DNA of 64,000 nucleotides from Acidobacteriota bacterium (GTDB taxonomy: Bacteria > Acidobacteriota > Thermoanaerobaculia > Gp7-AA8): NCBI GenBank assembly GCA_019244185.1, contig JAFATB010000022.1:415978-479977 (forward strand). Reading direction: 5' to 3'. This document shows, one piece after another, positions 17,232 through 23,171 of the stretch. How positions within the stretch are numbered: the first letter of the stretch is position 1; each line of letters begins with the position of its first letter. The translations under genes were made by a program, and so were the position numbers. The notes beneath the pieces were generated by a model. It saw nothing but the letters and a program-made list of their open reading frames with translations, was not told the origin of the DNA and did no database searches.

Positions 17232-18947
17232 CTAGGGCGCGCCGATGGCGCGCCGCACCGCACGAATGTCGCCGTCCAGCGGCCGGTCGTAAAAGACCGG
17301 CCGCGCGGCGCTGCGGATCGTGAGGTACAACGCGCGCGTTCCTTCGCCGAGCTGCGCGGCGATCTCATTCGCGCGATCGCGCACCGCGGCTTCGAACTGC
17401 TGCGCCTGCGCGTTCGCCTCGGCTTCGTTCGCGAGCTTCGTCGGCTTGTTCGGATCGATGTCGAACGCCGCGCGCCATTCGACGGCTTGCGCCGCCGCGA
17501 GCAGCTCGATCGCGAGCACCGACTGCACGTTCGACAGCACCGTGCGCAGTTTGCGCGCGGCGTGCGTCGACATCGACACGTGGTCTTCCGTGTTCGCGCC
17601 GGTCGGGATCGAGTCGACCGACGCGGGATGCGCGAGGACTTTATTCTCGGAGACGATCGACGCCGCGGTGTACTGCAGGATCATCAGCCCCGAATTCACG
17701 CCCGGTCGCGTGGTGAGGTTCTGCGGCAACCCGCGATTGTGATGGCCGTCGAGCATCAACTGCGTGCGGCGCTCGCTGATGTTCCCGAGTTCGTGAATGG
17801 CGATGGTGAGGAAGTCCGCCGCGAGCGCGAGCGGCTGACCGTGGAAGTTGCCGGCGGAGTACGCGAGCCGGCGATCGCCGTGATACCACTCCGGCCAGTT
17901 CGCGCGGAACTGCAGGTCGAAGGGGTCGCCTTCGTCGGGGAAGAACAGCGGATTGTCGGTCGCCGCGTTGAGCTCGCGCTCCGCGGTCGCGCGCACGAAG
18001 CGCAACGTGTCGCGCGTCGCGCCGTGCACCTGCGGCGCGCAGCGCAGCGAATACGGATCCTGCACCGCGCCCGCGCGCTCGACGAGCCGGCTGCCGGCGA
18101 GCAGCGCGCCGATGCGTTGCGCGCTCTCGATCTGTCCCGGATGTCCGCGCTCCGCGTGCACTTTCGGATCGAGCGCGCGCGTGCAGCCGGCGAGCGCTTC
18201 GAGCGACAGCGCGGCCGCGGCGTCGGCATGATCGGCGAGCCGCTCCGCGTCGTACACCGCGAGCGCGAGCATCGCCGCGGAGAAGTTTGCACCGTTGACG
18301 AGGCCGAGTCCTTCCTTGAAGGTCGGCTTCAGTTCATCCGCGGAGAACCCGAGCACCTCGGGCAGCTCGCGCGCGGAACGGAGCGTGCGGTCGGAGGTCG
18401 TGTAGAAGCGGCCTTCTCCAAGCAGCGTGGCGAAGAGATGCGATAGCGGACAGAGATCGCCGCTCGCCCCGACCGAACCGCGCAGCGGGACGAGCGGAAT
18501 CACGCCGCGGTTGAGCATCGCCCGCACGATCTCGACGAGCCGCATGCGCACGCCGCTGCGACCTTTGAGAAACGCGTTGAGCCGCGTGGCGAGCGCGCCG
18601 CGGACGACTTCGGCGGGGTAGTAGTTTGCGAGATCGTCGGGATCGGAGTTGTCGCCGACGCCGACGGAATGCGAGAGCAGCAGGTTGCGCTGCAGCTGTT
18701 CGAGATCGTCCGGCGCGATCGGCTTGTCTTTGAATTCGCCGAAGCCGGTCGTGACGCCGTATTCGGAGATCTTGCCGCCCTGCGCGTATGCCTCGCGATG
18801 CTGCGCGACGACGCGCGCGATCGCGGCTTCGCTGCGGCGCACGGCGGGCTCGGTCTTCGGATCGATGTCGACCGTGACCGACGGATCGCGGGCGATCGAT
18901 GCGAGCTGCTCGATCGTCAGCGACGCGCCGTCGAGCACGACGTTCAT
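17232..18947 (-). CDS. hutH: Histidine ammonia-lyase (MIO aromatic amino-acid lyase), 571 aa, with insertions
   Basis: YGVTTGFG, NLLLSH (His-type SH), GSVGASGDL, QDPYSLRC, TDNPL, GNFHG, EDHVSM; ATG 18947 overlaps the hisS stop. Confidence 0.85.
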   Translation of the reverse strand: MNVVLDGASLTIEQLASIARDPSVTVDIDPKTEPAVRRSEAAIARVVAQHREAYAQGGKISEYGVTTGFGEFKDKPIAPDDLEQLQRNLLLSHSVGVGDNSDPDDLANYYPAEVVRGALATRLNAFLKGRSGVRMRLVEIVRAMLNRGVIPLVPLRGSVGASGDLCPLSHLFATLLGEGRFYTTSDRTLRSARELPEVLGFSADELKPTFKEGLGLVNGANFSAAMLALAVYDAERLADHADAAAALSLEALAGCTRALDPKVHAERGHPGQIESAQRIGALLAGSRLVERAGAVQDPYSLRCAPQVHGATRDTLRFVRATAERELNAATDNPLFFPDEGDPFDLQFRANWPEWYHGDRRLAYSAGNFHGQPLALAADFLTIAIHELGNISERRTQLMLDGHHNRGLPQNLTTRPGVNSGLMILQYTAASIVSENKVLAHPASVDSIPTGANTEDHVSMSTHAARKLRTVLSNVQSVLAIELLAAAQAVEWRAAFDIDPNKPTKLANEAEANAQAQQFEAAVRDRANEIAAQLGEGTRALYLTIRSAARPVFYDRPLDGDIRAVRRAIGAP

Positions 18948-20368
18948 TCGAGCTCCGCGAGCATCCGGCGGATGCCGTCGACGAGCTCCGCGCGCGGCAT
19001 CGTGACCTGCCCGGCGCGTTGCGCGAGGTACTCCTTGCGATCGGCGACCGGCTTCGCGCGCTCGCGTCCCGCGACCATGTCCTTCACGGTGACGATGCCT
19101 TCCGCGTGCTCGTTGCCGCCGTACAGCAGCGCGAGCGGGATGTCGTACTGGTCGGCGTACTTGAGCTGCTTGCCGACGCCTTTCGCGGTGCCGAGGTAGA
19201 GCTCCGTCGGAATGCCGGCGCGGCGCAGCTCCCACGTCATGGCGAGATACTCCTGTTCGAGCGACTCGTCCATGCGCGCGACGAGCACGCGCGCGGTCGC
19301 TTTGCGCTTGCCGATTTTTCCGAGCTGCGTGAGCGCGGCGAGGAGACGATCGACGCCGATCGACGCACCGACGGCAGGGATCGATTGCCCGAGGAAGCGC
19401 ATCACGAGATCGTCGTAACGGCCGCCGCCGAAGACGGAGCCGAACTGCGGCGCTTCCGTGAGAATCGCTTCGAACACCGGACCGGTGTAGTACGCGAGTC
19501 CGCGAGCGATCGAGAGATCGAGCGAGACGCGATCGTCGCCGTAGCCCAAAACGTAGAGGTTCGAGGAGATGCGCTCGATGACGTCGATCTGCGCGGGCGC
19601 GTTCTCGACGTGCGCGAACAACTCGCGCAGGCTGGTGAGCACTTCGCGGCGCGATTCGGATTTGATGGCGAGGAACTGTTCGATGCGATCGACCTGCTCG
19701 GACGTGAGGCCGACGCCGCGGATGGTGTCTCCCGATTCGTCGACGTAGCCGTTCATCAGCTCGCGCCGCACTTTTTCGACTCCGACTTTGTCGAGCTTGT
19801 CGAGCACGCGGAAGACGTCGACGCCCTGCTCGGCGGAGATGCCCGCGAACGCGAGCAGGAGATTCAGCACCGCGCGGCTGGAGAAGCGGACGAGATAGCC
19901 GCCGACGTCGAGCGCGCCGAGGGTGTCGCACATGCCCGCGATGATCTCGGTGTCCGCGATCTCGCTCACGACGCCGACGGAGTCGAGATCGAACTGGATG
20001 AACTCGCGGTAACGCCCTTTGTCCGGCTTGTCCGCGCGCCACACCGGCGCAACCTGATAGCGGCGGAACGGCCGTGGCAACTCGCGCTCGCTGTACTGCG
20101 CGATGACGCGCGCGAGCGGCACGGTCAGATCGAAGCGCAATCCCAATTCCTCGTGCTCCGGATTCGTGACGCGAAAGATCGACTGCTGCGCCTCGGCGCC
20201 CGCGCTGCCCGACAGGACGTCCAGAAACTCGACCGCCGGCGTCGACAACGGCACGAAGCCGTAGTTCTCGTACACCCCGCGAATGGTGTCGATCATCTGC
20301 TGCCGCGCCAGCATCTGGTCGGGAAGCAGATCGCGAAGGCCGCGGGAAAGGCGGGGAGAGGTGGTCAT
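18944..20368 (-). CDS. hisS: Histidine--tRNA ligase, alphaproteobacterial/eukaryote-like type
   Basis: LRFDLTVPLAR, WRADKPDKGRYREF, RGLAYYTG, GGGRYD, GASIGVDR; insertion DKLDK...DESGD; extended C-terminus. Confidence 0.95.
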   Translation of the reverse strand: MTTSPRLSRGLRDLLPDQMLARQQMIDTIRGVYENYGFVPLSTPAVEFLDVLSGSAGAEAQQSIFRVTNPEHEELGLRFDLTVPLARVIAQYSERELPRPFRRYQVAPVWRADKPDKGRYREFIQFDLDSVGVVSEIADTEIIAGMCDTLGALDVGGYLVRFSSRAVLNLLLAFAGISAEQGVDVFRVLDKLDKVGVEKVRRELMNGYVDESGDTIRGVGLTSEQVDRIEQFLAIKSESRREVLTSLRELFAHVENAPAQIDVIERISSNLYVLGYGDDRVSLDLSIARGLAYYTGPVFEAILTEAPQFGSVFGGGRYDDLVMRFLGQSIPAVGASIGVDRLLAALTQLGKIGKRKATARVLVARMDESLEQEYLAMTWELRRAGIPTELYLGTAKGVGKQLKYADQYDIPLALLYGGNEHAEGIVTVKDMVAGRERAKPVADRKEYLAQRAGQVTMPRAELVDGIRRMLAELE

Positions 20369-20373
20369 GAGAA

Positions 20374-20489
20374 GCGGAATGTAGAACGCAGAACGCAGAA
20401 CGCAGAATGAAGAAAGGGGAACGATGCGCAGTCGCGGGGCGACGGCATTTCTACGTTCTTACTTCTGCGTTCTGCGTTCTTCATTCCGC
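20374..20489. repeat. Inverted repeat built of AGAACGC heptamers between tRNA-His and hisS
   Basis: GCGGAATGTAGAACGCAGAACGCAGAA ... TTCTGCGTTCTGCGTTCTTCATTCCGC. Confidence 0.85.
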
Positions 20490-20507
20490 CGCCGCCAGGC
20501 GGCGGCT

Positions 20508-20584
20508 TGGTACCGGGGGCCGGTCTCGAACCGGCGACCCCCAGATCCACAATCTGGTGCTCTGACCAACTGAGCTACCCCGGC
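20508..20584 (-). tRNA. tRNA-His(GUG), 77 nt, encoded CCA, no genomic G-1, discriminator A73
   Basis: GCCGGGG TA GCTC AGTTGGTCA GAGC A CCAGA TT GTG GA TCTGG GGGTC GCCGG TTCGAGA CCGGC CCCCGGT A CCA; -10-like TATCAT at 20597-20602. Confidence 0.97.
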
Positions 20585-20679
20585 ACTCGGGCGGGCATGA
20601 TACTCGGGCACGCAGACGAGGGGAAGAGGCGCGCTCCGTGCCGTCCGCGCGTGAGAACGCCGCATCCCGCGAACGCATT

Positions 20680-21027: not shown

Positions 21028-21699
21028 TCAGTCACTATCCAGCAGCTGCAGCGCTTTCCGCCGATGCACGGCGATCGAGCGTCCCGCCGTCACGACGATG
21101 CCGCGTTTGCGGAAGCGCTGCATGAATACGGTGATGCGCGGCCGCGTGGTGCCGACGATCTGCGAGAGCTCTTCCTGCGAGATGCGCAGGTCGACGCGCG
21201 CGTAGTCGCCGTCGATGCTGCCGAGTTTCTCCGCGATGCCGAGCAACACTTTCGCGAGCCGCTTCTCGGCGTCCATCGTGACGAGGTCGAACACCGCCAC
21301 CTGCCGCTCGGCGAGCCGCAGCGCGAGGTGCCGCAACAGCATCTCCATCGCGGAGGCTTTCTCGACTTCCACGAGATAATCGCGCCGCAACACTTTGCGC
21401 ACGAAGGTGCGCTGCATCGCGGACGCGGTCTCGTTCCTGCGGCCGCTGTCGAGAAAACACGATTCGCCGAAGACATCGCCGGCGGCGTAAATCGCGAGCA
21501 CGCAATCCTTGCCGCTGGCGGAAGACATGGACAGCTTCACCTGTCCCGACTCGATCAGGTACATGGCGTCGTCTTCGTCCCCCGTGGCATAGATCGCTTG
21601 CTGGGCATCAGCGCGCAAGCGCGCCACCGGCAACGACTCGCGATCGAAAATGTCGCGAAGGGACGGTAGCGAATGGGCGCGGCCGTCTTTGGAAGGCAT
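21028..21699 (-). CDS. Crp/Fnr-family transcriptional regulator
   Basis: YLIESGQVKL, GDVFGE, AEKRLAKVLL, HTH SQEELSQIVGTTRPRIT. Confidence 0.9.
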   Translation of the reverse strand: MPSKDGRAHSLPSLRDIFDRESLPVARLRADAQQAIYATGDEDDAMYLIESGQVKLSMSSASGKDCVLAIYAAGDVFGESCFLDSGRRNETASAMQRTFVRKVLRRDYLVEVEKASAMEMLLRHLALRLAERQVAVFDLVTMDAEKRLAKVLLGIAEKLGSIDGDYARVDLRISQEELSQIVGTTRPRITVFMQRFRKRGIVVTAGRSIAVHRRKALQLLDSD

Positions 21700-22163: not shown

Positions 22164-23171
22164 CTATGAAGCCACGAAGAGCGCGTCGGCGAACCACGCG
22201 CGGGCGTCGGTCCAGAGGTGCGCGATCGTGAAGCCGGAGGATTGGGCGAGGGCGGCGAGGGTGGACTCGTCGTGTTTGTAGGAGCTCTCGGTGTGGATCG
22301 TTTCGGCTTCGGCGAAATCGACGCTCAGATCGAGGGCGGCGAGGTGGACGCGTTGCGGTTGCGTGCTCACGAGGTGCATCTCGATGCGGCCGAGGGGCTC
22401 GTTGTAGAAGGCGCGGTGGGTGAAGCGGTCGAGCGCGAAGTCGGCGTTGAGTTCGCGGTTCATGCGCACGAGGAGATTCTTGTTGAAGGCGGCGGTGACG
22501 CCGAGGGGGTCGTCGTAGGCGGGTTCGAGAACGTTGCGCGGCTTGCGGAGATCGGCGCCGAGGAGCAGCGCGTCGCCGCGGGAGAGTGCGGAGCGGAGAT
22601 CGCGGAGCATCGCGATCGCGGCGTCGGGATCGAGATTGCCGATGGTCGAGCCGAGGAAAAGGACCACGTTGCGGCCGCGATGGGGGCCAAGCATCGCGAG
22701 CGACGACGACGGCGACGCGAAGTCGGCGCGGACGGCGGTGATGCGGAGGTGCGGATAGTCGGCGAGCAGCTCGCGCGCGGAGCGTTCGAGCATCGACGCG
22801 TCGACGTCGACGGGAACGTATTCGAGCTCACGCTGGCGTTCCGTCAGGACGTCGAGGAGGATGCGCGTCTTGCGCGCGGCGCCGCTGCCGAGCTCCACGA
22901 GGCGCACCTGGGCGCCGAACGCATCGCAGATTTCGCTCGCGTGCGCGTGCAGCACCTCGGCTTCCGCGCGCATCACGTAGTACTCGGGCAGAAAACAGAT
23001 CGCGTCGAAGAGCGAGGATCCGAGCTCGTCGTAGAACCAGCGCGGCGGGAGCGACTTGCGGGACGCGGTGAGACCGCGGCGGACGTCGTCCGCGAAATCG
23101 CCGGCCGCGACGGCGCCGTGGCGCAGCGTGAACCGTGACGTGGGCGAGACCGGGACGGCGGCTGCGCACAT
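22164..23171 (-). CDS. egtD: L-histidine N-alpha-methyltransferase
   Basis: GLT..KSLPPRWFYD..GS.LFDAIC.LPEYY, VELGSG, FLGSTIGN, AYDDPLGVTAAFN, HTESSYK. Confidence 0.9.
   Translation of the reverse strand: MCAAAVPVSPTSRFTLRHGAVAAGDFADDVRRGLTASRKSLPPRWFYDELGSSLFDAICFLPEYYVMRAEAEVLHAHASEICDAFGAQVRLVELGSGAARKTRILLDVLTERQRELEYVPVDVDASMLERSARELLADYPHLRITAVRADFASPSSSLAMLGPHRGRNVVLFLGSTIGNLDPDAAIAMLRDLRSALSRGDALLLGADLRKPRNVLEPAYDDPLGVTAAFNKNLLVRMNRELNADFALDRFTHRAFYNEPLGRIEMHLVSTQPQRVHLAALDLSVDFAEAETIHTESSYKHDESTLAALAQSSGFTIAHLWTDARAWFADALFVAS

Follow-up and report, generated by a model that had tools for sequence, protein, structure and literature searches.

Genes for histidyl-tRNA synthetase (HisRS, encoded by hisS) have been described in close association with modules that relate to histidine consumption. 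In Lactobacillus parabuchneri and L. buchneri, the histidine decarboxylase (HDC) cluster has the order hdcP-hdcA-hdcB-hisS, and its authors assume that the additional hisS keeps histidine available for translation (PMC5313534). In plants, the cytosolic HisRS is described as carrying an N-terminal domain of about 400 amino acids that resembles histidine ammonia-lyase (HAL), is 15-20% identical to it, and is without the Ala-Ser-Gly triad (Saga et al. 2020, PMC7564348). Meanwhile, the tRNA-His of certain alpha-proteobacteria is reported to lack the nucleotide G-1 and to bear the marks A73, G1:U72, and a 9-nt D-loop, as in Caulobacter crescentus (Yuan et al. 2011, PMC3064791). Here we describe a gene cassette made of tRNA-His, hisS, and hutH (the gene of HAL) in a 64-kb stretch from the genome of a soil Acidobacteriota bacterium (contig JAFATB010000022.1). 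We refer to this whole stretch as the window.

We interpret the locus as a conserved and co-directional histidine cassette, (egtD)-tRNA-His-hisS-hutH, in which the lyase is catabolic and co-expressed with the charging of tRNA-His. We assign to this reading a probability of about 0.6. The cassette is similar to the Lactobacillus HDC cluster in that hisS and an adjoining tRNA gene lie beside the gene of an enzyme that drains free histidine. It differs in that the Lactobacillus cluster is described as having an extra hisS under a His T-box on a mobile island and as draining histidine through a decarboxylase (PMC5313534), whereas the hisS of the window is the only one in its genome, had no T-box match, and adjoins the gene of a lyase. 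The likeness to the plant HisRS consists of a HAL-family module tied to a HisRS of eukaryote type. In the plant protein, however, both are part of one polypeptide, with the HAL-like part first and no Ala-Ser-Gly, while in the window they are encoded separately, with hisS in front, and the lyase is predicted to be catalytically intact (PMC7564348). The plant fusion, which the preliminary description of this DNA had brought up and which is indeed in print, indicates that a HAL-like module has become joined to a HisRS in another lineage; it would not by itself establish that the two proteins of the window bind each other.

Organization and conservation of the cassette

The cassette spans positions 17232-20584 on the minus strand (all coordinates follow the numbering of the window). 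It begins with a tRNA-His(GTG) gene (20584..20508; ARAGORN, Rfam tRNA 68.9 bits). This is followed by hisS (20368..18944), encoding a HisRS of 474 aa (TIGR00442 350.1 bits, cut-off 286.75), and by hutH (18947..17232), encoding a HAL of 571 aa of the type that bears a 4-methylideneimidazole-5-one (MIO) group (PF00221 561.3 bits). At the hisS/hutH junction, GAATGAACG, the TGA of hisS and the ATG of hutH share the letters ATGA, a 4-nt stop/start overlap that had been recognized from the outset, and a GGAG motif is located six bases 5' of the hutH ATG. Hence hisS and hutH are two separate open reading frames (ORFs) with a stop codon between them, and not one polypeptide as in the plant HisRS fusion. 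The three genes are co-directional, and neither of the terminator-like sites found falls between them: one is upstream of tRNA-His (21484..21465), and the other is inside hutH on the opposite strand. This geometry suggests that tRNA-His, hisS, and hutH form one transcription unit, from the 5' end of which the tRNA would be cut, and that translation of hutH is probably coupled to that of hisS through the ATGA overlap.

Related loci were retrieved by scanning species-representative genomes, and the best 80 of 345 stretches were kept (58-85% identity). These loci were titled Thermoanaerobaculia or Acidobacteria/Acidobacteriota, with one exception titled Phycisphaerales. Sixty-three loci extend 1500 nt or more 5' of the lyase, and in 62 of them hisS is directly upstream and on the same strand, the exception being locus L094. 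The other 17 loci were too short to judge this linkage, although in seven of them the end of hisS is still visible at the edge of the locus. The tRNA-His gene precedes hisS in 56 of the 59 loci that have room for it. ORF boundaries could be fixed exactly in 47 hisS-lyase pairs. The 4-nt overlap is found in 26 of the 45 plus-strand pairs (25 ATGA and one TTGA), and the genes of L100 overlap too. Neither hutU nor hutI was found in the flanks of any of the 80 loci. In our literature search, we found no description of a hisS-hutH operon.

The same linkage was evaluated in 401 evenly sampled genomes of the phylum Acidobacteriota, and a HAL at E ≤ 1e-30 is present in 336 of them (the unpublished genomes G024 and G152 enter these tallies only). 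We compared 40 HAL loci with flanks of up to 7 kb per side. hisS was upstream of HAL in all nine of the most similar or full-length loci (G040, G083, G056, G070, G266, G365, G176, G003, and G164). The remaining 31 loci contain ordinary HALs. None of these has hisS within about 7 kb, and hutU adjoins 19 of them, hutI seven, and either gene 20. Three of the ordinary HALs (G216, G305, and G341) belong to the family code of the window genome. A sweep with the HisRS identified 15 genomes with at least 50% identity (that of the window included), and 13 of them carry the lyase beside hisS. Overall, the linkage persists down to approximately 50% HisRS identity and 42% HAL identity, in families f1, f8, f11, f16, f33, and f62.

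A tree was inferred from 52 lyases over 502 columns, after most insertion columns had been dropped. It included 12 close cassette lyases (a subsample), nine distant ones (among them that of L094), and the 31 ordinary HALs, while the fragmented lyase of L198 was left out. One branch of this unrooted tree splits 20 hisS-linked lyases and that of L094 from the 31 ordinary HALs, with an ultrafast bootstrap and SH-like approximate likelihood ratio (SH-aLRT) support of 99/99. The hisS-linked lyases occupy their own side of the tree; as the tree has no root, this separation does not by itself establish a clade. The preliminary description had set against its own proposal the case of an enzyme nested among hut-operon HALs, without conserved adjacency in relatives and encoded by the sole hutH of its genome. 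What we found is a lyase that lies outside the ordinary HALs and next to a conserved hisS, and that is nonetheless encoded by the sole hutH.

This pattern might also arise if a HAL gene had landed once downstream of tRNA-His and hisS and had been inherited vertically ever since, so that the adjacency would be meaningless and the insertions in the lyase (see below) would reflect lineage drift. The position of all hisS-linked acidobacterial HALs on one side of one branch is compatible with such a single origin. The link is also broken in some genomes: G377 and G291 have a HisRS with 54% identity and no adjoining HAL, and in G401, the genome that holds L094, the lyase gene is on another contig than the tRNA-hisS pair. 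Moreover, the gap between hisS and hutH exceeds 100 nt in about 20 of the 62 loci, with a maximum of around 500 nt (extrapolated coordinates), and most of the 80 loci come from close kin, so their high counts do not represent independent events. Nevertheless, a frozen accident fits poorly with a link that survives to the identities given above in six family codes, and with a 4-nt overlap that has been kept in more than half of the pairs. Genome G011 displays the reversed order HAL-hisS. In two Planctomycetota, hisS is immediately followed by a very divergent HAL-like gene, and in one of them a hutU-like gene lies in front. In addition, the gene of a third histidine-using enzyme, egtD, adjoins the unit in 37 of 45 loci, and independent precedents are described in which hisS is joined to histidine-consuming modules (PMC7564348, PMC5313534). 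We therefore consider a frozen accident rather unlikely.

Some of the linked loci depart from the window type. In three genomes of family f62, the hisS-linked lyase is about 42% identical to that of the window, is without three of its four insertions (the second to the fourth), has other insertions instead, and displays Gly-Ser-Gly. Two of these lyases (L197 of G174 and L199 of G388) have one insertion of approximately 15 aa that follows the MIO loop and another, of about 25 aa, that precedes the YS-R motif. The lyase of L201, the locus with reversed gene order in G011, has Cys-Ser-Gly in place of Ala-Ser-Gly. The hisS-linked lyase of L123 (G164:C4) is about 750 aa long, with much larger insertions and a single in-frame TGA where Ala is otherwise conserved, which may be a sequencing error or the mark of a broken gene.

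A tRNA-His and HisRS pair without G-1

The tRNA-His of the window has G1:U72, A73, a 9-nt D-loop, and an encoded CCA, with T at -1 and G at -2; G-1 is not encoded. These marks agree with those listed for the alpha-proteobacterial type (PMC3064791). The gene is present in a single copy among the 55 tRNAs of the genome, and no tRNA with C73 was found there. Thg1 (PF04446) had zero matches in this 98.9%-complete genome, so no enzyme for the post-transcriptional addition of G-1 was seen. Among the 80 related loci, we recovered 58 tRNA-His genes (28 distinct sequences), and every one of them displays G1, T72, A73, and a 9-nt D-loop, so that the co-occurrence of the hisS-hutH pair with an A73 tRNA-His, raised as a question in the preliminary description, holds among its relatives. 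T occupies position -1 in all 58 genes and GT positions -2/-1 in 57, and the rest of the flank is variable. By sequence, base pairing of G-2 and U-1 with C74 and A73 is conceivable in precursor tRNA-His, and, given their conservation, the mature tRNA might keep U-1. Within the genome of the window, GT at -2/-1 is found at only 8 of the 55 tRNAs (for tRNA-His, this flank is window 20585-20586).

A few loci display variants of this tRNA. Loci L090 and L095 (G040) show a tandem pair of tRNA-His genes before hisS, which differ in sequence and both have A73 and G1:U72. The hisS-adjoining tRNA-His of L099 (G266) has G73 instead of A73, keeps G1:U72, and has C at -1 and an 8-nt D-loop region. That of L123 combines g at -1 with A73. 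Our literature search found no report of a G-1-less tRNA-His in Acidobacteria; where one paper turns to G-1-less 8/4 tRNA-His, it mentions phages and one alpha-proteobacterium only (PMC5389517).

The HisRS of the window is the sole match in the genome above the TIGR00442 cut-off, and the solved structures closest to it are 6nhi, 3net, and the human 4g84, which are eukaryote-like. It is 44% identical to the HisRS of Rhodobacter sp. CZR27 over residues 9-471, with the insert of the anticodon-binding domain aligned. Among plasmid and chromid records, the best HisRS matches were all alpha-proteobacterial (38-45% identity). We take the Rhodobacterales to be part of the group without G-1 (the ΔG-1 type), and the type of the CZR27 HisRS rests on that placement. 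In this Rhodobacter, on the plasmid or chromid NZ_CP023549.1 (L228), hisS, hisZ, and hisG overlap one another, and a HisRS of the window's type is thus coupled to the first step of histidine biosynthesis, not of degradation. Based on their sequences, the tRNA-His and HisRS of the window make up a matched pair of ΔG-1 type and the only predicted histidine-decoding system of this organism. This type is rare and has so far been described mainly in alpha-proteobacteria. Its defining traits also include a mature tRNA that has no -1 nucleotide, and charging that relies on the anticodon and U72 instead of G-1. The likeness to the alpha-proteobacterial pair covers the absence of an encoded G-1, A73, G1:U72, the 9-nt D-loop, a related HisRS with the insert, and the absence of Thg1 here, as far as the features given in the original account extend (PMC3064791). 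Unlike that pair, the loci described here belong to Acidobacteriota and Planctomycetota, the tRNA gene is directly upstream of hisS, hutH follows hisS, and G at -2 with T at -1 is conserved.

Sister acidobacteria displayed a different set of genes. The HisRS proteins of 30 sister genomes are 23-31% identical to that of the window in 25 cases and 35-39% in four (family f40), and the last one is 46% identical over half its length only. The tRNA-His of the window was used as a BLAST query against the same 30 genomes. It recovered a tRNA-His in nine of them, the best matches elsewhere being other tRNAs. All nine genes carry g at -1 and C73 and are found inside tRNA clusters. One of the nine genomes with this canonical form is G216, a member of the window genome's own family. 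Because the sister genomes keep the G-1/C73 tRNA, a HisRS of low identity, and an ordinary HAL, the tRNA-His, HisRS, and HAL appear to change together. It is the whole unit, and not the lyase alone, that differs from the sister lineages, suggesting that the cassette behaves as one heritable module.

The HisRS of the window type extends beyond the Acidobacteriota, being present in 28 of 301 sampled Planctomycetota (E ≤ 1e-100). The tRNA-His adjoining hisS has A73 and G1:U72 in six of these 28 loci, and a divergent HAL-like gene directly follows hisS in two genomes (G499 and G448). Placed in the HAL tree, these two lyases have long branches and support values of 15-56, with no firm placement. 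In L232 (G499:C143), a hutU-like gene is followed by hisS and by a HAL-like gene of 765 aa with a very large internal insertion. In L233 (G448:C95), hisS is followed by a HAL-like gene of 548 aa with Ala-His in place of the Ser-His of HAL; hutU was not found in G448. A broader proposal is that a transferable histidine module has displaced the canonical tRNA-His, HisRS, and hut-linked HAL in several phyla, with the lyase acting as a physical or regulatory partner of the synthetase and as the free-standing counterpart of the plant domain; we regard this as quite improbable. Recent horizontal transfer into the window genome is unsupported, as the cassette matches the neighbouring genes in GC and in GC at third codon positions (GC3).

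These observations are of interest beyond this locus. The loss of G-1 has been regarded as peculiar to a single group of alpha-proteobacteria, and the same marks, along with a homologous HisRS, are now seen in many Acidobacteriota and some Planctomycetota. Furthermore, the tRNA-His and HisRS are encoded side by side in these loci, as a transferable orthogonal pair would require.

The lyase and its proposed role

The lyase scored 546.5 bits against NF006871, above the cut-off of 524, and 539.0 bits against the TIGR01225 equivalog model, whose cut-off is 539.15. Its motifs were compared among 43 orthologues. In the MIO triad A161-S162-G163, the Ser and Gly never vary, and the Ala is conserved in at least 90% of the sequences. 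Residues Y63, S92, H93, N218, F368, and E454 are invariant as well, and Y299 and R302 are at least 90% conserved. The catalytic positions align with the same positions of the Trypanosoma cruzi HAL (6v6h). Following the Pseudomonas putida enzyme, we take the Ser-His pair to be selective for histidine and the Tyr, Asn, Tyr, Arg, Phe, and Glu residues to be catalytic. An AlphaFold model of the lyase (mean predicted local distance difference test, pLDDT, 87.4) had solved HALs as its top Foldseek matches, with template modelling (TM) scores of 0.77-0.79 on the query and 34-36% identity to HutH structures. Judged by its sequence, the lyase retains every catalytic hallmark of a true HAL and looks catalytically intact.

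Compared with both the solved HALs and the 31 ordinary acidobacterial HALs, the lyase has four insertions, at residues ~48-57, ~98-110, ~336-358, and ~492-534. The preliminary description was right about the presence of insertions and of the ASG, SH, and catalytic Y/N/R/E motifs; it had counted three insertions, however, and had given the last one about 35 aa, where we find around 43 aa, with two confident helices in the AlphaFold model. It had also singled out NTED in place of NQED, a position that turned out to be uninformative: T, S, or A occur within the hisS-linked clade and K, Q, or V in ordinary HALs. The fourth insertion sits where alignments with plant phenylalanine ammonia-lyase (PAL) stop, at chain residue 526 of 1w27. 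We take this to be the position at which the shielding domain of PAL is inserted. The window lyase therefore shares with the HutH enzymes of hut operons (P. putida 1B8F/1GKM, T. cruzi 6V6H, and T. acidophilum 7TQR) the fold, the MIO Ala-Ser-Gly, the Ser-His pair, and the catalytic residues. It differs from them by its four insertions, its separate side of the tree, its hisS neighbour, and the fact that neither hutU nor hutI is its neighbour in any of the 80 loci.

The other genes of the Hut pathway were searched for throughout the genome. The lyase is the only PF00221 match. There are no other hut genes in the window, in agreement with the preliminary description, and no separate hut operon in the genome. 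Both hutU (952 bits) and hutI (448.7 bits) are present on other contigs, at C5:157294-158928 and C26:200737-201873, each flanked by unrelated genes. Likewise, hutU is present elsewhere in all 13 acidobacterial genomes that have a hisS-linked HAL. A catabolic role is the best reading of the lyase, because it is the sole HAL of a genome in which hutU and hutI are present elsewhere. The claim of the preliminary description that the unit acts "rather than serving catabolism" is at odds with these results. An arginase-family candidate for hutG is located at C4:526987-527811.

The neighbourhood of egtD raises the alternative that the lyase is not catabolic or performs another chemistry, either by acting on a histidine derivative related to egtD, such as methylated histidines, or by running towards histidine. 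Besides the conserved position of egtD, such a role could be accommodated by insertions that flank loops near the catalytic motifs and by a score that misses the HAL equivalog cut-off by 0.15 bits. Yet the MIO triad is kept, and the Ser-His pair and all the catalytic residues are those of HAL. Elimination of a primary amine depends on the MIO triad, but that of a quaternary amine such as hercynine does not, as in ergothionase; this counts against the alternative. Moreover, structure 6s7j is only a distant match to the lyase (154 bits), hutU and hutI are there to use urocanate, and the genome has no second HAL for catabolism. We deem a different chemistry highly improbable.

Another alternative is the one originally put forward, that HisRS and the lyase form a physical complex as the unfused counterpart of the plant fusion, with the insertions serving as the interface and the lyase buffering or proof-reading the histidine pool at the synthetase. 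Translational coupling through the overlap would give matched synthesis at one site, surface insertions specific to the clade contain conserved residues (N350-W351-P352 and Y355 are invariant among the 43 orthologues), and a HAL-like domain is present on the plant cytosolic HisRS (PMC7564348). On the other hand, the hisS-linked lyases of f62 are without insertions 2-4 and have others instead, which means that no common interface element tracks the linkage. The plant domain is described as lacking the MIO triad and as being only 15-20% identical to HAL, and it is N-terminal, that is, in the opposite order (PMC7564348). Weak evidence also comes from the five longer HisRS relatives that we found, none of which is a HisRS-HAL fusion: they are doubled HisRS/HisZ-like proteins or fusions with other synthetases, with no PF00221. 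Finally, the link is dispensable in some genomes. A complex of this kind is, in our view, very improbable.

Based on these findings, we postulate that histidine enters a dispersed Hut pathway through this lyase, the genes hutU and hutI being located at other sites of the genome. Through its tie to hisS and tRNA-His, the drain on the histidine pool would rise and fall with the charging capacity of the cell. The synthetase, with its presumed high affinity, would obtain histidine first, and the lyase (and the upstream EgtD) would take the surplus. The unit would act as one heritable module that has taken the place of a canonical tRNA with G-1 and C73, a canonical HisRS, and a HAL linked to hutU. 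In favour of this functional reading are the gene geometry, a linkage that is both deep and recurrent, the fact that 13 of 13 acidobacterial genomes with the cassette have hutU, and the analogy to the hisS of Lactobacillus, as interpreted by the authors of that work (PMC5313534).

Several points weigh against this reading, starting with the broken links, the wide gaps, and the close kinship of most loci mentioned above. Co-transcription is deduced from gene geometry, and the hierarchy of Km values is a textbook argument. The lyase falls 0.15 bits below its equivalog cut-off. For the last step of the Hut pathway, the arginase-family match is sub-threshold (173.6 against 229 bits), and neither a hutF above the cut-off nor an N-formylglutamate amidohydrolase was found in the genome. 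The link between hisS and HAL is absent in 26 of the 28 Planctomycetota with this type of HisRS, and the cassette bears no compositional sign of recent transfer (GC 0.67 against 0.675; GC3 0.87-0.89).

A synthetase that is, as predicted here, translationally coupled to the enzyme starting the breakdown of its own amino acid is an uncommon arrangement. It makes directly testable the simple idea that charging has priority over catabolism, as set by co-expression and affinity. In addition, a bacterial and apparently intact lyase provides a comparison point for the unexplained HAL-like domain of plant HisRS.

Neighbouring genes and a dispersed repeat

Upstream of the cassette and on the same strand, the window encodes EgtD, an L-histidine N-alpha-methyltransferase (22164..23171; TIGR03438 365.9 bits, cut-off 290.9; PF10017 368.5 bits). 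This enzyme performs the first step of ergothioneine synthesis. Of the related loci, 45 extend 2600 nt or more 5' of hisS; 37 of them have egtD upstream on the same strand, and in 17 of these 37 its end is ~30-445 nt from the start of hisS. Three enzymes that take free L-histidine, namely EgtD, HisRS, and HAL, are thus kept together with tRNA-His. Between egtD and tRNA-His, also on the minus strand, lies a gene for a Crp/Fnr-family regulator (21028..21699; PF00027 and PF13545). In 18 of the 45 loci, which represent the sub-lineage of the window, a gene of this family separates egtD from hisS. Matches to EgtB elsewhere in the genome are only sub-threshold (C14:281042-282256 and C4:524728-525156), the latter being near the hutG candidate.

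The space between tRNA-His and hisS contains a palindromic hairpin of 118 nt (20373..20490), identified by its fold and its repeat count in the genome. It has a folding energy of -77.3 kcal/mol (z -9.8), with one purine arm and one pyrimidine arm. No T-box or other Rfam element besides the tRNA was found at E values up to 1, bar a chance miRNA-like match on this hairpin. We considered whether the hairpin might be a leader or attenuator of hisS and rejected this possibility: it is a copy of a dispersed palindromic repeat, has no U-tract and no match to a regulatory Rfam family, and is absent in relatives whose tRNA-hisS spacer is 9-30 nt. The 17-nt core of its arm has 136 matches on both strands of the contigs of this genome, which has a G+C content of 67%. 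The copy in the cassette ends 7 nt before the hisS ATG. The repeat occurs at more than 60 other places (e.g., C1:14748, C2:42144, and C26:432590), with units such as GAATGAA/GAACGCA in the purine-rich arm, a matching pyrimidine arm, and a GC-rich loop.

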